Below, piece by piece: positions 22,952-33,322 of a stretch of 64,000 bases of DNA. Position 1 is the first letter of the stretch. Every line of letters begins with the position of its first letter. The stretch is from an uncultured Acholeplasmataceae bacterium. Its GTDB lineage: Bacteria > Bacillota_I > Bacilli_A > Acholeplasmatales > Acholeplasmataceae. Position numbers and translations under genes: made by a program. Below the pieces are notes generated by a model. The model made no database searches and was not told the DNA's origin. It saw only the letters and a list, made by a program, of their open reading frames with translations. Location of the stretch: assembly GCA_963544825.1 (NCBI GenBank), contig CAUUGG010000001.1, positions 80,890-144,889 on the forward strand, read 5' to 3'.

Positions 22952-24148
22952 ATGAATAGGCAACAACAGAAAATCATTGAAAGCAAAGACCAACACATTT
23001 TAGTGTTAGCCGGTGCTGGCAGCGGAAAAACTTATACATTAATTCAAAAAATAAAGGCAATTAAGGAAAGTGAAAATAACGCAAAAATATTGTGTTTAAC
23101 ATTTTCAAATCTGGCAGCCAAGGAACTAAAGCACAGGTTAAACGAAGAAAGTGTCGGTGTATATACTTTTCACGGTTTTTGTTTTAATTTAATTAAACCG
23201 TATATTTCAGACAAACAAGTTTTGTTTGAAACTCCGCGTCTTTTTAGTAAAGGAGAAATTCTAGAAGTTTCTCTCTACAAGGCTAATCCTGACAAAAAAC
23301 CAAGTAAAACTTTAAAAAAATACAAAGAGTTTCTTGATAAAAATGCGTTAATTGATTTTGACGATATGCTTTTACTTTGTTTAGAAAAACTAAAAAATAA
23401 AGAAATTAGACAAACTTGCGACTATGTTCTAATTGACGAAGTTCAAGACACAAACCTAGTTCAGTTTCAGATTTTAAAACATTTAATTTCTCCTGACACC
23501 AAAACTATTTTAGTTGGAGACATAGACCAAGGTATTTATAAGTTCAGAGGTGCATCTTTTGATTTAATTGAAAAATACCAAGAAACCTACTTGCCTAAAG
23601 TTTATATGCTCACACAAAACTACCGCTCAGCGCCAGCAATTGTTGAATGCGCAAATAAGCTAATTGAAAAAAATAAAAAAAGGCCAGAAAAAGTACTTTT
23701 TTCAGACCTTAAAATTAAAGCAAGCATAAAAATTTATCTATACTCAAAAATCTCTGATTTTATTTTAGAACTAAAAAACTATTTAATTGCTCAAAGAAAT
23801 CAACAAGTAAAAATAAACGAAATTTGTCTATTGGTCAGAAGAAACCAAGAAAGAGTGTTAATTGAGCAAGAACTCAAGCGAGGCTTTAGGTTTTTTGAAT
23901 ATTTGCCGCAAATCTACACAGTACACGAATCAAAAGGACTTGAGTTTAAAACGGTTTTTATAGTAGGTCTTAACGAAGGGGTGTTTCCATATACTAAAAC
24001 AGGTGCATTGCTTGACATAGAAGAAGAAAGAAGGCTGATGTATGTTGCGATTACCAGAGCGAAGCAAAACCTTTTTTTAGTGAGTTTTGAGTTTAGCCAA
24101 AACGGCACAAAACTCAAACCTTCTAGATTTTTAAAAGAAATTTACTAA
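22952..24148 (+). CDS. Compact UvrD/PcrA-like SF1 helicase (398 aa)
   Basis: All SF1 motifs are present in order: AGAGSGKT, TFSNLAAKEL, DEVQDTN, VGDIDQGIYKFRGA, QNYRS, TVHESKGLEF and YVAITRAK. The length is about half that of PcrA. Confidence 0.8.
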   Translation: MNRQQQKIIESKDQHILVLAGAGSGKTYTLIQKIKAIKESENNAKILCLTFSNLAAKELKHRLNEESVGVYTFHGFCFNLIKPYISDKQVLFETPRLFSKGEILEVSLYKANPDKKPSKTLKKYKEFLDKNALIDFDDMLLLCLEKLKNKEIRQTCDYVLIDEVQDTNLVQFQILKHLISPDTKTILVGDIDQGIYKFRGASFDLIEKYQETYLPKVYMLTQNYRSAPAIVECANKLIEKNKKRPEKVLFSDLKIKASIKIYLYSKISDFILELKNYLIAQRNQQVKINEICLLVRRNQERVLIEQELKRGFRFFEYLPQIYTVHESKGLEFKTVFIVGLNEGVFPYTKTGALLDIEEERRLMYVAITRAKQNLFLVSFEFSQNGTKLKPSRFLKEIY

Positions 24149-24150
24149 GC

Positions 24151-27100
24151 CTATTTGTCTGGCAAATCATCAAGACAACTAAGGTCTAAGAATTTTTTAT
24201 AAACAGTTTTATTAACACCAGATCGTGCTTTAAAGTCTTCTTTAGAAGTGTAAAGCCCGCTCTTTCGTGCGTTTACGGAGTCAAACGCCGCTGTATCTCC
24301 AGTTCCGTCAATTGTGGCAAACGGCATTTGCAGAGTATTTCCTTTAATGTTGAAAGTTTTAGCACTAGACTCGTTAACCGCGAGTTTTGAAAAACTAAAG
24401 CCACGCGCGCAAAACTCATATGCTACTTTTAGTGTCACTAAAAGTTCTTGGTCTTTAGCCTTAATCTCATATCCCAATTGCTCAAGTTCACGGATTTTGT
24501 TGCCAATTGCTATTTTGCCGCTAGTCATCACAGTGTAGTCAAACTGAACTGCACGTTTTGAAAAAAAAGCAGAGTAGAAAAGCAAAGGTTTGTGTAGTTT
24601 AAACCAGGCAATTCTAATGGCCATAATAACGTAGGCAGTGGCGTGGGCTTTTGGAAACATATAGTTAATCAGTCCGCATGAGTAAATATACCACTCAGGC
24701 ACACCAAAGACTCTTAGTTGATTTGCGTACTCTGCCCATTTTTGTGGGTTTCTGCGGCAATTTCCTTTACGAATAAACTCCATAGCGTTAAACGCCAGAA
24801 GTGGTTCAACGTTGTATTTAGAGATCAGGGTTATCATGATGTCGTCGCGACAACCAATTAAGTTTTTAAAAGGAATTGAGCCAAACTCAGGGTGTCCATC
24901 TTTTAAGACTTTTCCGTTATTTAGCCACACGTTTTCGCCATGCGAAAGCCCAGAAATTTTAACCAGTTCCGCAAATGTTGTGGGTTTGGTTTCCGCTAAA
25001 ATTTGCGAAACAAAAGGTGTACCAAACTCAGGTAGGGCAGTAGAAGCGGTTGCCGGCATAAAAGGTGCGTTTGAGTAGTCTACGTTTAGAATTTCGTTAC
25101 CTGAAAACATTTTATAAACATCAACGTCGGCCATTGGAATGTCTCTGACTTCGCTAAAGGGAAACTCAGCAGGGTTGGCCTTGACGTAGTCAAATAAAAA
25201 CTTAATCATGGTCGGATCATCGTGTCCTAAAATATCTAGTTTTAGTAAGTTTTCTTCAAAAGAGTGGTAGTCAAAGTGAGTCGTGCGCCAACTTGCTGTG
25301 GTGTCGTCTGACGGAAATTGCACAGGTGTGACGTCAAAAATTGAGTAAGGCTTTGGCACCACAACAATACCACCTGGGTGTTGCCCTGTGGTTCGCTTAA
25401 CTCCAACAATTTTTTTAGCCAAGGCTGCAATTTTGGGTTTGCGGATTTTCATTTGCTTATCTTCAATGTAGCCCTTGACATAACCAAATGCGATTTTTTC
25501 GGCAACTCCCGATACAGTTCCTGCTCTAAAAGCGTGGTCCGCTCCAAGCAAGGTGCGAACGTATTCATGAGCTTGTGCTTGGTATTCACCTGAGAAGTTA
25601 AGGTCAATATCAGGGGTTTTGTCGCCTTGAAAACCAAGGAAGGTTTCAAACGGAATGTCGTGTCCATCTCGGTTTAGTTTAGAGCCACACACTGGACAGT
25701 CTCGTTCTTTTAAGTCGTATCCATCGTCTGCTTCGTTTAAGTCATCTTTAAACATTTCGTCAAACTGAGTAGAGGCGTAGTCTTTCTTTGAGTCTTCGTT
25801 GAACTTAAAGACCTGGAAACAACCTTTTGGACAAAAGTAATGCGGAGGTAAAGGATTGACTTCAGTTATACCTAAAATTGTTGCCACAAAAGAAGAGCCA
25901 ACAGAGCCACGGCTACCTACCACGTATCCGTCGTCGTTAGACTTTTTGACAAGTAAATAAGACATGTAGTAAATTGAGGCAAAGTTATTTTTGAGAATGG
26001 TAGTTTGCTCTCTTTTTACTCTGTCTAAAATAAAAGGGTGTGGGTTTTTGCCGTACTTTTGCTCAAGGTTTTTAGAAATTAAGCGCTTAAACTCACCTTC
26101 TATTGAAGGAATACCTTGGTCTTTAAAGTAGTCATCTGAAAACGAATACAGTCCTTCTGGAAAAGCCTTAATGTCTTGAATTAAATCAGCTATCTGATTT
26201 GAGTTTTCAACCACAATTTCTTTGATTAGTTTATCGTCATTTAAAAAAGTAAACTCAGCACTTAGTTCATCAGTTGTCTGAAAAAAGTAGTCAGGTGTGG
26301 CCTCGTATTGCGCAAGTTCATGGCGACCTCCGCCAACTAATGGAGTTCTGATAAAAAACTGATAGTAAATTTGGTCTTCTTTATTTAAGTAATGTGGATT
26401 ACTTGAGGCAACTATGGTTTTATTTAACTTTTTGGCGTGTAAAATTAGTCTAGAAATTGCGTTTTTAATTGCCTCTGTTCCACCGGCTATGTTGTCTTTA
26501 AGGTGTGAAAAACAACTTGGCGGATAAACTAAAACGTAGTCGTATTTTAAAATATGTGAGTCCAAAACATCGTCGGTTGAGTTTAGAGCATCAAACCACA
26601 GTTCACCTGCTCCGTTTGCACCAATTAACAAACCTTCTTTGTATTTTTCAAACTCAGAAGCAAGTACACGGGGTCTTTGGTGAAAGTACTCAGTTAAAGC
26701 AGAAGTTACTAACTTAAATAGATTTTTATAGCCGGTTTGGTTTTTAACCAAAAAATCCACAGCAAACGGCATTTGATGTAAGTAAGTTTTACTACGATCT
26801 ACCGTGGTTTCAAGTTCATTGAAGGTTTTGATGCCTTTTTGTGCAAGGTCTTCAAGCATTTTGATAAACATTTGACCGGTAGCATCGGCGTCATCTATCG
26901 CGCGGTGGTGGTTTTCTAAGTTGATTTTAAAGAAACGAGAAAGTGTGCCTAAGTTAAAACGCTTAAGTTTGTCTGAGTAGTGATATCTGGCTAAGTTAAG
27001 AGTATCAATGTACAGTACATTTTCGCCAAATGAATAGTTTAAGACTTTGGCTTTATGAAGCACATTTAAGCAGTCAAACGATGCGTTGTGAGCAACTAAC

Positions 27101-28599
27101 ACTGAGTCTTTTGCAAACTCTATAAAGTCTTTTAAGACAACTTCAATTTTGGGTTGTCCTTTTAGCATCTCGTCGGTAATGTTAGTTAAGTTTGAGACAA
27201 ACTCAATTAAATTTTCTTCAGGGTCACAAAACGCCTGAAATCTGTCAATGATTTGACCGTTTTTGACTTTAACTGCACCAATTTCAATAATTTTGTCGTT
27301 AACTATGGAAAGTCCGGTGGTCTCTAAGTCAAATACCACGTAAGTAAGGTCTTTAAGTAAGGTGTCTGAATCTCCCTTTTTAATGTAAAAAGAGTCGTCA
27401 ATGTAGGGCATTTGCACGCCGTAAATTGGTTTAATTTCGGCTTTTTTGCAGGCTTGCGCAAATTGTGGGTATGCATAAATTCCGCCAGAGTCAGTAACAG
27501 CGATGGCTTTGTGTCCAAAAGACTTAGCCAAGGCTACGTAGTCTTTAATCTCACCCACTCCGTCCATGTTAGAAAGTTTAGTTTGAACATGTAGTTCAAT
27601 TCTCTTGTCTTCTGCTTTGTCTTGGCGAGTAAATAATGTGTTTTCTTCGTTTTCATTTTCTTTGTTGACAATTTCAAAGTTTTTAAGCATCAAAACAACG
27701 TCGGCAGCATAGGTGTCGTATTGAACTTCTGCAATAATTTTTAAGTTAGTGCCGGGCTGAATTTTTTCAGCCTCTGCGATTTCTTGGTTGTATAGAAACT
27801 TCTTGGCCAAAATAGCATCTGTTTCATCTTCTAAAGTCATTTGAAGCAGCGTGTATTTGCCATCTTTGAGTTTTCTAATTTCTGCCTCTACTACGGTAAC
27901 GTGAAACTTATAAACTAGACTTTCGCCTTGATTTTGTTTTTTTGTAACTTCGTAGTTGTCATAAGGAATTTCTTTTAATTTCTTTAAAGAAAGGTCATCT
28001 CTAAAAGAGTAGCTACGGCGTCTTGAATAACCTTGGTTTGAACGCACAGTTTGGGTGTATGCTTGGTTTGAACCAGTTTGAATGTTTTCGGACTGAGTGT
28101 TTAATTCAAAAGTGGTTTCGCTAACCGGTCTTTTTTTGAAATTAAAGATAAAAGGTAAGCCAAAATAGTTAGAAAAAGCATTAAATAAAGTTTTGCTTAA
28201 GTTCTGTTTAATAGCCCAGTTAAGCGTATTTGCGTCAACTGTGATGTCAATAGTTTTGTTGGTTTCGTCAACTTTAAACTCAGATTTTAAAACAACTTCA
28301 AGAAAGCGTTTATTTATAGGATCGTTGGTATTGAAACTTTTAATTTGAACCTGAAAATAACTAATAAAGTGCACATCTAATTTGGAGTAGGTTTCATAGG
28401 TAAAAATTAGTTTTGTGTTTTTTGGTGCTCCGGCGTTTTGCAAAAATTTAAAAGTTTCTTGGTTAAGTGAAAAAAAATCAGAATACGAAATTACTTCTTT
28501 TAACCTAATAGTAACTTCTAGTTTTTCGTCAGTTTGCTTAAAATTAACAACGGTTGGCGAAAAGTCAAAATTTTTTTCAAAAAAATCTTTTATACTCAT
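24151..28599 (-). CDS. polC: DNA polymerase III alpha subunit, PolC type
   Basis: The 1482-aa translation has a PHP domain, an inserted DEDD exonuclease (VVFDLETTGL, HNASFD, HRAIDDA) and a pol III core. An AGGAG RBS lies upstream. Confidence 0.97.
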   Translation of the reverse strand: MSIKDFFEKNFDFSPTVVNFKQTDEKLEVTIRLKEVISYSDFFSLNQETFKFLQNAGAPKNTKLIFTYETYSKLDVHFISYFQVQIKSFNTNDPINKRFLEVVLKSEFKVDETNKTIDITVDANTLNWAIKQNLSKTLFNAFSNYFGLPFIFNFKKRPVSETTFELNTQSENIQTGSNQAYTQTVRSNQGYSRRRSYSFRDDLSLKKLKEIPYDNYEVTKKQNQGESLVYKFHVTVVEAEIRKLKDGKYTLLQMTLEDETDAILAKKFLYNQEIAEAEKIQPGTNLKIIAEVQYDTYAADVVLMLKNFEIVNKENENEENTLFTRQDKAEDKRIELHVQTKLSNMDGVGEIKDYVALAKSFGHKAIAVTDSGGIYAYPQFAQACKKAEIKPIYGVQMPYIDDSFYIKKGDSDTLLKDLTYVVFDLETTGLSIVNDKIIEIGAVKVKNGQIIDRFQAFCDPEENLIEFVSNLTNITDEMLKGQPKIEVVLKDFIEFAKDSVLVAHNASFDCLNVLHKAKVLNYSFGENVLYIDTLNLARYHYSDKLKRFNLGTLSRFFKINLENHHRAIDDADATGQMFIKMLEDLAQKGIKTFNELETTVDRSKTYLHQMPFAVDFLVKNQTGYKNLFKLVTSALTEYFHQRPRVLASEFEKYKEGLLIGANGAGELWFDALNSTDDVLDSHILKYDYVLVYPPSCFSHLKDNIAGGTEAIKNAISRLILHAKKLNKTIVASSNPHYLNKEDQIYYQFFIRTPLVGGGRHELAQYEATPDYFFQTTDELSAEFTFLNDDKLIKEIVVENSNQIADLIQDIKAFPEGLYSFSDDYFKDQGIPSIEGEFKRLISKNLEQKYGKNPHPFILDRVKREQTTILKNNFASIYYMSYLLVKKSNDDGYVVGSRGSVGSSFVATILGITEVNPLPPHYFCPKGCFQVFKFNEDSKKDYASTQFDEMFKDDLNEADDGYDLKERDCPVCGSKLNRDGHDIPFETFLGFQGDKTPDIDLNFSGEYQAQAHEYVRTLLGADHAFRAGTVSGVAEKIAFGYVKGYIEDKQMKIRKPKIAALAKKIVGVKRTTGQHPGGIVVVPKPYSIFDVTPVQFPSDDTTASWRTTHFDYHSFEENLLKLDILGHDDPTMIKFLFDYVKANPAEFPFSEVRDIPMADVDVYKMFSGNEILNVDYSNAPFMPATASTALPEFGTPFVSQILAETKPTTFAELVKISGLSHGENVWLNNGKVLKDGHPEFGSIPFKNLIGCRDDIMITLISKYNVEPLLAFNAMEFIRKGNCRRNPQKWAEYANQLRVFGVPEWYIYSCGLINYMFPKAHATAYVIMAIRIAWFKLHKPLLFYSAFFSKRAVQFDYTVMTSGKIAIGNKIRELEQLGYEIKAKDQELLVTLKVAYEFCARGFSFSKLAVNESSAKTFNIKGNTLQMPFATIDGTGDTAAFDSVNARKSGLYTSKEDFKARSGVNKTVYKKFLDLSCLDDLPDK

Positions 28600-28684: not shown

Positions 28685-28728
28685 AAGATAAAAAAGCAAT
28701 TTTAAATCTGAATTAAAATTGCTTTTTT
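28685..28728 (-). terminator. Hairpin terminator upstream of the polC promoter region
   Basis: It has a perfect 15-bp stem AAAAAGCAATTTTAA / TTAAAATTGCTTTTT with a 7-nt loop. It lies just downstream of the stop at 28744 of the tail ORF. Confidence 0.6.
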
Positions 28729-28743
28729 AAAACTAAATTTAGA

Positions 28744-28947
28744 CTAAAAACGGTTTTTAAGTAAATCAATTATGGTGTTGTTTTTTAAATCATCTAAGTT
28801 AAAAAGTTCGTATAAAACTTCTGAAGTATCCTCTAGGTTATTCTTTGCTGACTTCCATCCTGCTCCATCTGTGAACCAAACAAAATTAAAGCCTTGAATC
28901 TCTTTAACAGAAGTTGCTAGGTTTTGTTTTATTGTCTTAAGTGTTTT
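28744..28947 (-). other. 67-codon open frame with no ATG, GTG or TTG, in the -1 frame relative to the 883-aa gene. It may be a frameshifted C-terminal extension.
   Basis: It translates as KTLKTIKQNLATSVKEIQGFNFVWFTDGAGWKSAKNNLEDTSEVLYELFNLDDLKNNTIIDLLKNRF*. It opens inside the A6 run (28944-28949) that lies 5 codons before the annotated stop. Confidence 0.4.
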
Positions 28948-31580
28948 TTAACTTTAAACTCGCCTCTGTTGAAAAATTCATTTTCCATTATTAACTCAAA
29001 ATCATCTGAATAAAAGCAAATTATTAAACCAATCAGAATAAATAAATTCATCTTAACTTTACCGTTGATTTCAACTTTGGGTAAGAAGTTTTTATCGCAA
29101 ATAATTTCATCCAAAGTAACTTCTGGCTTATCATCTAATTTGCTTTCTAAATACTTTTTAAAACTATGTTTTTCATCATTATTGAAATTAACTTTATCTA
29201 AACAAATTAACTTATTTGAACTTATCACCATATACTGTTTTTTTAACATATTAACAAACTCAAAAACAGTAGTTCTTTTTGCAGGAGTGACTTGCGGAAG
29301 GATAAACTTATTGAGTTCTATTATGTCAATAATTTCTTTATCCTTAATAAAATCAGCAACTAGTTCGTTATATTCTGGAAAAACTGTTTCTAAATTACCA
29401 ATTAAAGGTCTTTTAAATGCAAAGTCTTTGGCAAAAAACTGTTTTGCTAAATTAAAAATGTCATAAGGGTATAGGATTTTGTGCCTGTAAATAAACTCAG
29501 GCATTTCTGCCTTGCATGCCAAATATATATACTGATCAGTGCGGTAGCCAATTTTGATTGCTTTTAAAGATTTTTCAATAATGGCTTTTAAATTTTTTAG
29601 TTCTGTGTCAGTTATTTTGAAATTCTTAAAGTAGATATAGCCGCGATTCCAAAAATAAATAAAGTTTTTAGTCTCTGAAATCTCTGTTGAAAATACGCTT
29701 TTGGCAACCCCTTTAAACTCATTTTCAAATTTTGTATAGTCAAAAAATTCGGTTTGTGAAATCAACCATGCTTTAATTTTGCTACGTAAGGTTTCGTTGC
29801 CACCAAGTGGTAGCAAATAATCGCGCTTGCCTTTAAATAACTGATTTTCATAGTGGGAAAGGGCGCCCTTAAGTTGGTATCTGTTAGTAATATTGAAGTC
29901 TTTTAGTTCGCTTTTAAAAATTTTTAAAATACCTGAATACGAAATCGGATGATTTTGATTTTGCAAGTAGACAGATATTTTTTTAGCAAAGTCTAAAGTA
30001 ATTTGAGGTGAGTCGTTGACGTGCGCGTAAGTTCCACGGTCTATTAATTGAACGTTGCTTCTTTCAATTATTGCTTGGACAGTGTGGTAATACTTATTGT
30101 CAGGTTTATTTGTTTCTTCAAACAAAATATTGCCAAATTCAGCAAGAGAGCACTCGTTGATGCGTTTAATATCGTTATAATCAGAACAGTGAAAACCATT
30201 TTTGAAATGCTTTTCAATTAAAATTTCTGTTTTTTGCTTTTTAGATAAGCTAAAATTGTATCTAATATAGGTGCCTTTTCTTAGATGAAAATTATTGGAA
30301 ACATAAGTTTTTATACTATTTTTTGTCATTTTAAAGTTCGGCAGAAGTTGTCTAATTTTTTTGATTTTTAAAAGCAGGTCTTCTTCTTTAAAATAATGTT
30401 TAAAGACCTGTTTTTCAACCTCTAGGAATTTATCTAAATGTTCTTTTGCAGAAAAAAATCCGTGGAACTGCTCAAGATATCCTGTGCTAGTTACCACGTT
30501 TAGCTTTTTGAGTAAAAAAGAAGTAGCGTCGTAGTTATATTTAAGTTTGTCTTTCAAGGATATGAAGTCAAAAAAGTAGCGGCGTTTTGTAAAGACAAAC
30601 ATAAAGTCTATTGACTTAAATGTAAAGTTTTTTAAATAAAATGCATTAAACTCACTAACCATTTTATCTATTCTTTGTCTTACTCTTTCTCTAGTTAAAT
30701 CAAATTTCTGGCCAATTTCATCTAAAGTAAGGTGGTTTCTTTGACCTAAAATTTCAAAATCTGTGTAACTGTAGCCTCGCATCGCACCAATAAATAACTC
30801 AATAAATAAGTAGTATTTATCAGTTGCTGAAAAAAATAAAATATTTGCAAGTTTATTTAGTTCAAGGCCATATTTAAAAAATAATTCTTCAATTTTAGCG
30901 TCTTTAATTTCTTGAATTAGTTCAGCAAAATTACCTTTATATGAATTGTTATTTTCAAACATTTTGAGTAAATTAAAACATTTTTCTTCGTTTTCAGGCA
31001 AAATATATTTAGCGTAATAAGGAATTGCTTCGCTTAAAATTAAGAGTTCTTGAAAAATAAAATGTGGATTGATGGTTTCATTGGTTTTGTTTAAAATAGT
31101 TTCTCTAGCAATTGTAAAGTCAAATAAGTTTTGATTGATTCCACAATTGATTTTCTCCTGATTTTTAGTAGCACCAATAATATCTGCAATTTGAATATCA
31201 GAAATTTGTTTTCTAGTTTGAGGGCTGATTTCGGTGTTTAAAAGGTCTGTATTCAGGCCAGTTAGAGATTTAATTAACTTAAAACCATTTTCAAAAGATT
31301 TTAAAAACAAGTGATCGTCTAGTGTACAGAGGTTTTCATACTTTTTAGTTTTCTCTGAAATTAACTTAGTTTCGGCGTCTATTTTAAAATCCCATTGAAG
31401 AATATACTCAAATTTCTTTGCATTCATTGGGGAATTAAAATCCACTTTAAATCTGCTATAAAGCGTAGAAACTTTTTTACCAACAAATTGTTTGCAAAAA
31501 ATATAAAAATATTGTCTAGACAACCAAACATTTTTTCTAATTTCAAATAAATTTGTCTCTTTAAACTCAAATAAATTCAC
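28929..31580 (-). CDS. Large hypothetical protein (883 aa) with a central sigma-70 region-4-like HTH
   Basis: The segment LTLDEIGQKFDLTRERVRQRIDKM matches the sigma-70 r4.2 HTH pattern. I recognised no NTPase or nuclease motif. The start was moved to the GTG at 31580 (RBS AGAGGTG), because the track's start at 31688 overlaps tRNA-Glu. Confidence 0.6.
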   Translation of the reverse strand: MNLFEFKETNLFEIRKNVWLSRQYFYIFCKQFVGKKVSTLYSRFKVDFNSPMNAKKFEYILQWDFKIDAETKLISEKTKKYENLCTLDDHLFLKSFENGFKLIKSLTGLNTDLLNTEISPQTRKQISDIQIADIIGATKNQEKINCGINQNLFDFTIARETILNKTNETINPHFIFQELLILSEAIPYYAKYILPENEEKCFNLLKMFENNNSYKGNFAELIQEIKDAKIEELFFKYGLELNKLANILFFSATDKYYLFIELFIGAMRGYSYTDFEILGQRNHLTLDEIGQKFDLTRERVRQRIDKMVSEFNAFYLKNFTFKSIDFMFVFTKRRYFFDFISLKDKLKYNYDATSFLLKKLNVVTSTGYLEQFHGFFSAKEHLDKFLEVEKQVFKHYFKEEDLLLKIKKIRQLLPNFKMTKNSIKTYVSNNFHLRKGTYIRYNFSLSKKQKTEILIEKHFKNGFHCSDYNDIKRINECSLAEFGNILFEETNKPDNKYYHTVQAIIERSNVQLIDRGTYAHVNDSPQITLDFAKKISVYLQNQNHPISYSGILKIFKSELKDFNITNRYQLKGALSHYENQLFKGKRDYLLPLGGNETLRSKIKAWLISQTEFFDYTKFENEFKGVAKSVFSTEISETKNFIYFWNRGYIYFKNFKITDTELKNLKAIIEKSLKAIKIGYRTDQYIYLACKAEMPEFIYRHKILYPYDIFNLAKQFFAKDFAFKRPLIGNLETVFPEYNELVADFIKDKEIIDIIELNKFILPQVTPAKRTTVFEFVNMLKKQYMVISSNKLICLDKVNFNNDEKHSFKKYLESKLDDKPEVTLDEIICDKNFLPKVEINGKVKMNLFILIGLIICFYSDDFELIMENEFFNRGEFKVKKHLRQ

Positions 31581-31652
31581 AAATACACCTCTGGTATTAT
31601 CTTTATTTAAAAAAAAATACTCAAGTTGCCTTGAGTAAATTATTTTTAAAAA

Positions 31653-31728
31653 TGGTGACCCGTACGGGATTTGAACCCATAAATGCATGCGTGAAAGGCA
31701 TGTGAGTTAACCGTTTCTCCAACGGGCC
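31653..31728 (-). tRNA. tRNA-Glu (anticodon UUC), CCA encoded
   Basis: The reverse complement GGCCCGTTGGAGAAACGGTTAACTCACATGCCTTTCACGCATGCATTTATGGGTTCAAATCCCGTACGGGTCACCA folds as a cloverleaf with anticodon loop CTTTCAC and a GGTTCAAATCC T-arm. Confidence 0.9.
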
Positions 31729-31790: not shown

Positions 31791-31864
31791 TGGTGCCTAC
31801 ATAAAGAATTGAACTTTAGTTTTAGCATTACCATTGCTACGTACTACCACTGTACTATGTAGGC
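31791..31864 (-). tRNA. tRNA-Thr (anticodon GGU), CCA encoded
   Basis: The reverse complement is GCCTACATAGTACAGTGGTAGTACGTAGCAATGGTAATGCTAAAACTAAAGTTCAATTCTTTATGTAGGCACCA. The acceptor stem is GCCTACA/TGTAGGC and the anticodon stem TAGCA/TGCTA closes the loop ATGGTAA. Confidence 0.8.
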
Positions 31865-32773: not shown

Positions 32774-33322
32774 TCAGTTTAAATTAAGTTCAGAAAGGTA
32801 AGTTAAGAAACGAACATTTTTGCTAACTTTGGTCGGAATTTCACTAACTTTTAGTGAAACTACTTTAGTTTCTTTGCCAAGGTATGAAATGTTTTCTTTA
32901 AAGGTAAAAACTAATCTTGGTGTACCTTTTTGCATTTTTGGCTCAACTTTAGTGATATTTTGATTTAAAAAGGTAAAAAGAACGGTTTCTTCCTTTGCTT
33001 TGTTTAAAGTAACTAATTCTACTCTGTCTGCCTTGATTTCAAAAGCAGCGTGTTTGTATACCGAAGTTTTGGCTGCAAACGAAAAAACATCGCGTTCTTT
33101 AAAGTGGCTAAGCAGATTTTGCACTTCGTTTTGCTGAAAACGGTTGTATAAAATTAGCGTTGAAATTAAAAAGACTAAGAAAAAGAAAGTAGGAATAATT
33201 GAATATACCGATTCTTGGCGAGAAATTACGATGTAAAGTAAAACTGCCAAGGTAGAAAGTAGGGCAAGTAAACTAAATAATAAAGCAAGTAGAAAAAAGA
33301 TTTTTTTATTTCTCATCATCAA
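32774..33322 (-). CDS. Hypothetical membrane protein with 2 N-terminal TM helices
   Basis: The call rests on the hydrophobic N-terminus only. Which of the three initial Met codons is the start is uncertain. Confidence 0.45.
   Translation of the reverse strand: MMMRNKKIFFLLALLFSLLALLSTLAVLLYIVISRQESVYSIIPTFFFLVFLISTLILYNRFQQNEVQNLLSHFKERDVFSFAAKTSVYKHAAFEIKADRVELVTLNKAKEETVLFTFLNQNITKVEPKMQKGTPRLVFTFKENISYLGKETKVVSLKVSEIPTKVSKNVRFLTYLSELNLN

Follow-up and report, generated by a model that had tools for sequence, protein, structure and literature searches.

We analyzed a stretch of 64,000 nucleotides (the window; coordinates below count from its first letter) from an uncultured Acholeplasmataceae bacterium (assembly GCA_963544825.1, contig CAUUGG010000001.1, positions 80,890 to 144,889), with a focus on a gene at 28929..31580 on the minus strand. 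The gene encodes a protein of 883 amino acids in which a sigma-70 region 4 is followed by an array of predicted winged helices, and the protein adds a solitary member to a family that is catalogued but uncharacterized. Outside the genus, genes of this family recur in or beside defense-type cassettes; within the genus, the gene keeps one position, is broken in many congeners and lies beside an intact or decayed DpnII-type restriction-modification (R-M) pair. Taken together, these results make it fairly probable that the gene is an accessory gene of a decaying defense islet, left without partners in this genome, and that its product is a non-enzymatic, multi-domain DNA-binding protein.

Sigma-70 region 4 and the winged-helix array

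The gene and the parts of its product are as follows.

28929..31580, minus strand: coding sequence of the 883-amino-acid sigma-like winged-helix protein, with a GTG start and a TAA stop; length and start match those of homologues
30825..31580, minus strand: N-terminal domain, residues 1-252, subfamily-specific and without a detectable structural relative
30624..30818, minus strand: sigma-70 region 4 (4.1 and 4.2), residues 255-319, from Pfam, profile matches in the PDB and the AlphaFold2 model
30660..30740, minus strand: region 4.2 helix-turn-helix (HTH), residues 281-307, with the recognition-helix motif T296-R-E-R-V-R-Q302
28944..30605, minus strand: about seven tandem winged-helix modules, residues 326-879, built of H-H-H-beta-beta repeats

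The longest reading frame at the locus (28929-31688) would encode 919 amino acids, and its initial 36 codons run into the tRNA-Glu gene (31653-31728). The GTG codon at 31580 is preceded by an AGAGG Shine-Dalgarno sequence and gives the product of 883 amino acids; the same length and the identical start position were found in homologues from other assemblies. In agreement with the initial annotation, the distance from the 3' end of tRNA-Glu (31653) to this corrected start is 72 nucleotides, and the gene lies between polC and a tRNA pair. The HTH had been placed around residue 330, which is the numbering of the uncorrected 919-amino-acid frame; in the 883-amino-acid protein the HTH, RNHLTLDEIGQKFDLTRERVRQRIDKM, occupies residues 281-307.

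The assignment of this HTH to sigma-70 region 4 was borne out by two kinds of profile match. The Pfam model Sigma70_r4 (PF04545) matched the protein with 24.8 bits, just above the cut-off of 24.1, and matched 28 of 28 members of the subfamily. Profiles of the close family and of the subfamily matched region 4 of SigA/RpoD in the PDB with E values of 2e-8 to 5e-8 over residues ~255-313, a span that covers both region 4.1 and region 4.2. In the structural model described below, region 4 is made of helices at residues 255-267, 272-280, 286-292 and 297-319. R299 and Q302 do not vary among 54 family members, and each of T296, R297, E298 and R301 is conserved in at least 90% of them. We take the motif positions to be those of R584, E585, R586, R588 and Q589 of sigma70, which contact the -35 element in structures of sigma region 4 with -35 DNA. 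The host SigA has TLEEVGNIFSVTRERIRQ at the position of the recognition helix, and SigA and the 883-amino-acid protein are the only two proteins with a sigma-4 domain in this genome.

The protein is non-canonical and is not a canonical sigma factor, as had been proposed, because it has no region 2 or 3 and its sole match is to region 4. Region 2 (PF04542) of sigma factors binds the core RNA polymerase (RNAP) and recognizes the -10 element. No match to PF04542, PF04539 or PF00140 was found in the protein even at E ≤ 1, and the NCBIfam sigma models cover just ~25 of its residues. Compared with SigA/RpoD, the protein thus has the same region 4.1/4.2 fold and the same -35-contact residues, but it lacks regions 1.2, 2 and 3, and hence a module for core binding or -10 recognition, and it carries another 560 amino acids of winged helices after region 4. 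The top match in both NCBIfam and PADLOC was MzaA (NF041931 / PDLC02203) of the anti-phage system MZA (mzaABCDE), which is likewise a large defense-associated protein with a sigma-70 region-4 HTH. That match covers ~25 HTH residues and scored 23 bits against a cut-off of 800, the remainder of the 883-amino-acid protein is unrelated, and no full-length match to NF041931 / PDLC02203 was found.

We then considered the fold of the whole protein. An AlphaFold2 model was obtained from an alignment of 54 sequences with a predicted local distance difference test (pLDDT) score of 88, and it divides into the N-terminal domain (1-252), sigma region 4 (255-319) and about seven winged-helix modules (326-879), the last with pLDDT mostly above 85. 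When the model was compared with the PDB by Foldseek, UFL1, the C-terminal WH1-4 of SelB and Dcc1 led the matches, Rpc82 and cullins appeared at non-significant E values, full-length sigma factors were weak, and there was no enzyme fold among the matches. The C-terminal 550 amino acids are the same kind of winged-helix array as in SelB WH1-4, UFL1 and Dcc1, but there is no sequence homology with these proteins and the template modeling (TM) scores are low because the domain arrangement differs, so that the likeness is architectural only. A Foldseek comparison of the full model with BFVD returned nothing informative. Consistent with the initial annotation, which had seen no Walker, nuclease or transmembrane motif, domain and structure searches found none of these in the protein. 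A match to the Pfam family DNA_primase_S (20.9 bits, below the cut-off) was rejected as spurious, as it was seen in 1 of 28 subfamily members.

The N-terminal domain is also predicted with confidence on its own, since the AlphaFold2 model of residues 1-258 alone reached a pLDDT of 88.6 and a predicted TM score of 0.85. This domain had no structural match in the PDB by Foldseek (best E value, 0.22) and no Pfam match, and hhalign found no significant similarity between it and the N termini of other subfamilies. The alpha-CTD domain of RNAP (PF03118), which occurs in relatives, was matched by 0 of 28 subfamily members, and hhalign comparisons gave E values of 0.016 and 0.43. Helices 218-252, with an invariant G238, occupy the place of the alpha-CTD helix-hairpin-helix in relatives, which is a hint, and only a hint, that they are a degenerate helix-hairpin-helix.

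An uncharacterized family beside defense modules

To place the protein, we relied on an exhaustive phmmer search over 1.84 billion representatives, which returned 431 cluster representatives at E ≤ 1e-3 and 223 at E ≤ 1e-10; a word-based search returned just homologues at 64-91% identity. The initial description of the protein as an unassignable orphan therefore stands in one respect, that curated libraries hold no family for it, and fails in the other, that it has no relatives. Six to seven relatives (P0132-P0137) are full-length, 26-30% identical, and also have the N-terminal domain. The remaining relatives align from the HTH onward only (residues ~280-880), and BLASTP aligned residues 285-879 with P0013 at an E value of 1e-20. 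The core of the family is sigma region 4 plus ~550 amino acids, and the winged-helix array is the homologous part that all members have in common.

Members of the wider family, such as WP_186860172.1 of Clostridium hominis, are homologous to residues ~280-880 at 21-30% identity, with E values down to 1e-117, and both they and the 883-amino-acid protein have the TRERxRQ recognition helix and the winged-helix array. Long members, of up to 2030 amino acids, carry one to three alpha-CTD domains upstream of sigma region 4. In contrast, the subfamily of the window has no detectable alpha-CTD and has its own N-terminal domain of 250 amino acids, and the window gene is solitary and not inside a defense operon. 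In the literature searched, we found no paper that characterizes the family. Its spread within the order is patchy, with a relative in 21 of 307 genomes and 4 of 43 genera.

The genomic contexts of the family were sampled at 12 loci outside the genus of the window. At 11 of the 12, the gene lies in or beside defense-type cassettes or mobile-element-like modules. Five loci have it in translational coupling with PDC-M33A/B/C (DUF6339), where it opens the operon or, in one case, closes it. Four of the five have an adjoining DNA methylase, which is of the Dam-class D12 type in three, and Cas9 or further R-M genes occur nearby in four. The D12 methylases at those three loci are 30-37% identical to the methylase found in the genus of the window. 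At two loci the gene is followed by BrxP, a phosphoadenosine-phosphosulfate (PAPS) reductase protein (BREX type 4-like), and by a protein of ~1400 amino acids, with a WYL regulator upstream at one of them. At one locus, in a genome of the same taxonomic family as the window's (G082), the gene comes directly after SspB-SspC-SspD, and at another it is the first gene of a cluster of PLD-SNF2 helicase, AAA_23, GmrSD_N and DndB genes within an island that carries an integrase. The closest full-length subfamily is represented by two loci, where the gene ends a conserved block of Macro, Sel1-TPR, DUF2130 and ADP-ribosylglycohydrolase genes that adjoins Rep_trans or DNA polymerase A and looks like a mobile element. 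At the twelfth locus (G048), the sole neighbor type noted is an AAA_14/DUF4143 ATPase. Members of the family are thus typically the first or last gene in defense-type operons, mostly DNA-modification-based. These contexts and the fold of sigma region 4 with tandem winged helices fit the proposal of the initial annotation that the protein is a DNA-binding scaffold, a regulator, or a defense or mobile-element cargo protein, and family membership and context support a defense or mobile-element origin.

PDC-M33 is a phage-defense candidate in PADLOC, which does not count the sigma-like gene among its components. At PDC-M33 loci a gene of the same family lies beside Dam-class methylases, as it lies beside M.DpnII in the genus of the window, but no A, B or C homologue was found in the window's genome or genus: tblastn searches of that genome with PDC-M33A, B and C were negative while positive controls worked, and PDLC04582 was matched by 0 of 19 genomes of the genus. 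The protein sequence of PDC-M33A had no match in the PDB.

Two further observations were made at these loci. An AAA_14/DUF4143-type ATPase gene adjoins the sigma-like gene in G048 and lies near it in L092, and four paralogues of this ATPase are encoded in the window's genome (G000) outside the window, at C2:55076-56371, C8:7051-8292, C9:15430-16596 and C3:968-2140. In many related loci, a small gene of 65-82 amino acids, often of the Xre/HTH_26 type, lies directly upstream and often overlaps the start of the sigma-like gene (L089:5902-6117, L092:6779-6976, L018:6783-7004 and L057:7780-8004). The window has no such small gene, and tRNA-Glu and the GTG start are just 72 nucleotides apart.

Decay of the locus across the genus

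Within the genus of the window, the sigma-like gene is present in 18 of 19 genomes, and its position is fixed, each time in the gene order lysS, an open reading frame, plsY, tRNA-Thr, tRNA-Glu, the sigma-like gene and polC. In five assemblies an intact R-M pair, a methylase of the HTH-Dam type (353 amino acids) with its own N-terminal HTH and a DpnII endonuclease (288 amino acids), lies directly downstream on the same strand. The window gene, solitary as it is, lies beside a relic of 60 codons of the DpnII gene, and the states found in the genus are listed after this relic.

28747..28926, minus strand: relic of a DpnII-family endonuclease gene, codons 229-288 of 288, without a start codon

G005, L016 and L017: sigma-like gene intact, R-M pair intact
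G007 and G008: sigma-like gene frameshifted, R-M pair intact
G000 (the window): sigma-like gene intact, 60-codon relic of the 3' end of the endonuclease gene
G012: sigma-like gene frameshifted, a more degraded relic
G002: codons 1-86 only of the sigma-like gene, fused by a single deletion to DpnII codons 210-288
G010 and G013: sigma-like gene intact, no trace of R-M
G001 and G015: sigma-like gene disrupted, no trace of R-M

In a tblastn comparison with the intact DpnII gene of the congener L016, the relic was 90% identical over 60 amino acids (E value, 4e-34). The partner methylase gene and endonuclease codons 1-228 have been lost from the window's genome. A reading of 28744-28949 as a -1 frameshift extension of the sigma-like gene was rejected, since the frame is the 3' end of the deleted DpnII gene. 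Directly after the TAG codon of the relic lies an AT-rich hairpin at 28690-28728 on the minus strand (AAAAAAGCAATTTTAA ... TTAAAATTGCTTTTTT), which is probably the former terminator of the R-M operon.

We then examined the integrity of the sigma-like gene itself. It is clearly intact in G000, G005, G009, G010 and G013, and seemingly intact, interrupted by contig ends, in G003 and G018. It is disrupted by a frameshift, truncation, stop or large deletion in 11 of 18 congeners (G001, G002, G004, G006, G007, G008, G011, G012, G014, G015 and G016), and the HTH-containing product has been lost in G001 and G004. Seven frameshifts and one nonsense codon were mapped, and every one of them is a different event. 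Five of the seven frameshifts and the nonsense codon fall within codons 1-252, and a sixth frameshift is at codon 254. In the frameshifted copies the part encoding sigma region 4 and the winged helices is still open over 635-708 codons, and truncated products recur across independent samples. Among the intact copies, the ratio of nonsynonymous to synonymous substitution rates (dN/dS) was 0.17-0.25 in each of the three protein regions.

A run of seven T residues (30834-30840, minus strand) lies at codon 249, at the boundary of the N-terminal domain and sigma region 4, and in G012 a run of eight T residues splits the gene. This run is a possible slippage hotspot, and other congeners are broken elsewhere. 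Phase variation as a general mechanism was rejected, because the seven frameshifts lie at differing sites, mostly outside long homopolymer runs.

The gene had been proposed to be accessory DNA that used tRNA-Glu as a landing site. The first half of this proposal is supported by the limited spread of the family, which reaches 4 of 43 genera in the order, and by the disruption of the gene in 11 of 18 congeners. The second half was not supported. Between tRNA-Glu and polC, no integrase reading frame was found, and there was no direct repeat of the tRNA-Glu 3' end, just chance AT-rich 12-mers, so that the interval has neither of the two marks of a tRNA-integrated island. Since the position is fixed across the genus, any insertion predates the genus. 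At 25 loci from 13 other genera, no tRNA was found within 1.5 kb upstream of the polC match; the polC N termini in these genera are just ~30% identical, and the open reading frames upstream of polC there have no homologue in the window's genome. Because these genera do not have polC and a tRNA side by side, they offer no empty site for comparison. The GC content of the sigma-like gene is 28.4%, compared with 34.3% for the genome of 727 kb, and ranks in the 2nd percentile among segments of 2.65 kb.

The surroundings of the gene in the window contain the following features.

31791..31864, minus strand: tRNA-Thr (GGU), with a promoter-like TTTAAA-16-TATAAT at 31909-31882
31653..31728, minus strand: tRNA-Glu (UUC)
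31618..31637, minus strand: terminator-like hairpin and T-run in the interval from tRNA-Glu to the GTG start, probably the end of the tRNA-Thr/tRNA-Glu transcript
24151-28599: polC, 330 bp downstream of the sigma-like gene

A promoter-like TTGAAA-17-TATGAT for polC was seen at 28676-28648. Convergent with polC is a gene for a UvrD-like helicase of 398 amino acids (22952-24148, plus strand), about half the usual size, which is found at the same position and at 88-99% identity in all congeners examined. An open reading frame of 182 amino acids between lysS and plsY (32774-33322, minus strand) has no Pfam match and has a counterpart of 180 amino acids at the same place in congeners.

Alternative explanations and biological meaning

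The reading that we favor is that of an accessory gene in a decaying defense islet. The ancestor of the genus would have carried the sigma-like gene together with the DpnII-type R-M pair, a Dam-class methylase and a GATC endonuclease, as a small islet between tRNA-Glu and polC. The islet would then have eroded piecemeal and mosaically in these reduced genomes, with the R-M pair deleted in the window's genome. The window copy is intact and purifying selection acts on it, which suggests that it probably still makes a DNA-binding protein. In this protein, which is composed of a subfamily-specific N-terminal domain, sigma region 4 and about seven tandem winged helices, region 4 would read promoter-like hexamers of the -35 type, and the winged-helix chain would extend along the DNA or recruit partners. 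Elsewhere the protein may act as a DNA-reading or regulatory subunit, with the adjacent defense modules as its partners, and in the window's genome it would have kept some autonomous DNA-binding role.

Several observations weigh against this reading. For every member of the family, DNA binding and its specificity are deduced from homology only. The sigma-like gene is preceded by the terminator-like hairpin at 31618-31637, with just a weak promoter-like site (TTGAGT-17-GATAAT, 31624-31596) that overlaps it. Apart from the DUF4143 ATPase paralogues, the window's genome has no homologues of the known partner genes, so that whatever the protein does here would be done alone. The disrupted copies have dN/dS values of 0.14-0.31, and such constraint means that the breaks are recent, that some split products are useful, or that some breaks are assembly errors. 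Finally, the integrity of the sigma-like gene and that of the R-M pair are uncorrelated: the gene is intact without R-M in G000, G013 and G010, and the R-M pair is intact with a frameshifted gene in G007 and G008. This independent variation makes a strict functional dependence of one on the other unlikely, and it also argues against the gene being essential.

The same observations bear on the possibility that the protein serves the DpnII-type R-M system specifically, as a component or controller, and times the expression of methylase and endonuclease or reads the GATC methylation state. The arrangement in the five assemblies with the intact pair, in which the HTH-Dam methylase and DpnII genes come immediately after the gene and share its strand, would fit such a role, as would the Dam-class (D12) methylases beside family members at three of the five PDC-M33 loci. 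We nevertheless regard it as unlikely: the gene and the R-M pair each persist without an intact copy of the other, which argues against an obligate controller, the methylase has its own N-terminal HTH, and DpnII-type systems are known to function as two-gene units.

It is also improbable that the protein has been domesticated as a genus-specific housekeeping factor of transcription or the nucleoid, that is, that a formerly accessory protein was co-opted as a second promoter reader beside SigA. Its constant position in the genus (18 of 19 genomes), a dN/dS of ~0.2, its standing as the sole sigma-4 protein in the genome apart from SigA, and its retention in a genome of 0.73 Mb after the loss of the neighboring R-M genes are all consistent with this idea. 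However, 11 of 18 congeners have frameshifts, stops or a large deletion in the gene, G002 retains codons 1-86 only, G001 and G004 are without an HTH-containing product, and in the other genera of the taxonomic family the gene was found in just one sampled genome. Least convincing is the idea that the gene has lost its function, is turning into a pseudogene and has stayed intact in the window's genome only by chance, since, for all the independent disruptions in congeners, the loss of known partners, the low GC content and the terminator-like hairpin just upstream, a frame of 883 codons at 28% GC has stayed open across copies with synonymous divergence (dS) of up to 1.3 and a dN/dS of ~0.2, and the part for sigma region 4 and the winged helices is open over 635-708 codons even in frameshifted copies.

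A more speculative idea, to which we give a small chance, concerns what the modules might do: sigma region 4 and, in the long members, the alpha-CTD may be integrated decoys or promoter mimics. The protein would then sense phage factors that hijack the host RNAP, or occupy -35 or UP-like sites on incoming AT-rich DNA, and the signal would pass via the winged-helix chain to an effector encoded next door. If so, the copy in this genome of 0.73 Mb, which is solitary and under selection, would silence foreign DNA on its own by occluding promoters, a form of defense that needs no enzyme.

Read as an accessory gene of a decaying defense islet, the window gene belongs to a large family, unnamed in the literature searched, that lies beside very different DNA-modification-based defense systems. 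The recurrence of these contexts suggests that the family provides a shared, portable DNA-reading or regulatory module. The genome analyzed here is a natural experiment on this module: a minimal genome that has lost the partners but in which purifying selection still acts on the protein. The breaks in sister species affect the N-terminal domain and leave the core of sigma region 4 and winged helices open, which suggests that the functional unit is the core and that the protein has some activity of its own.

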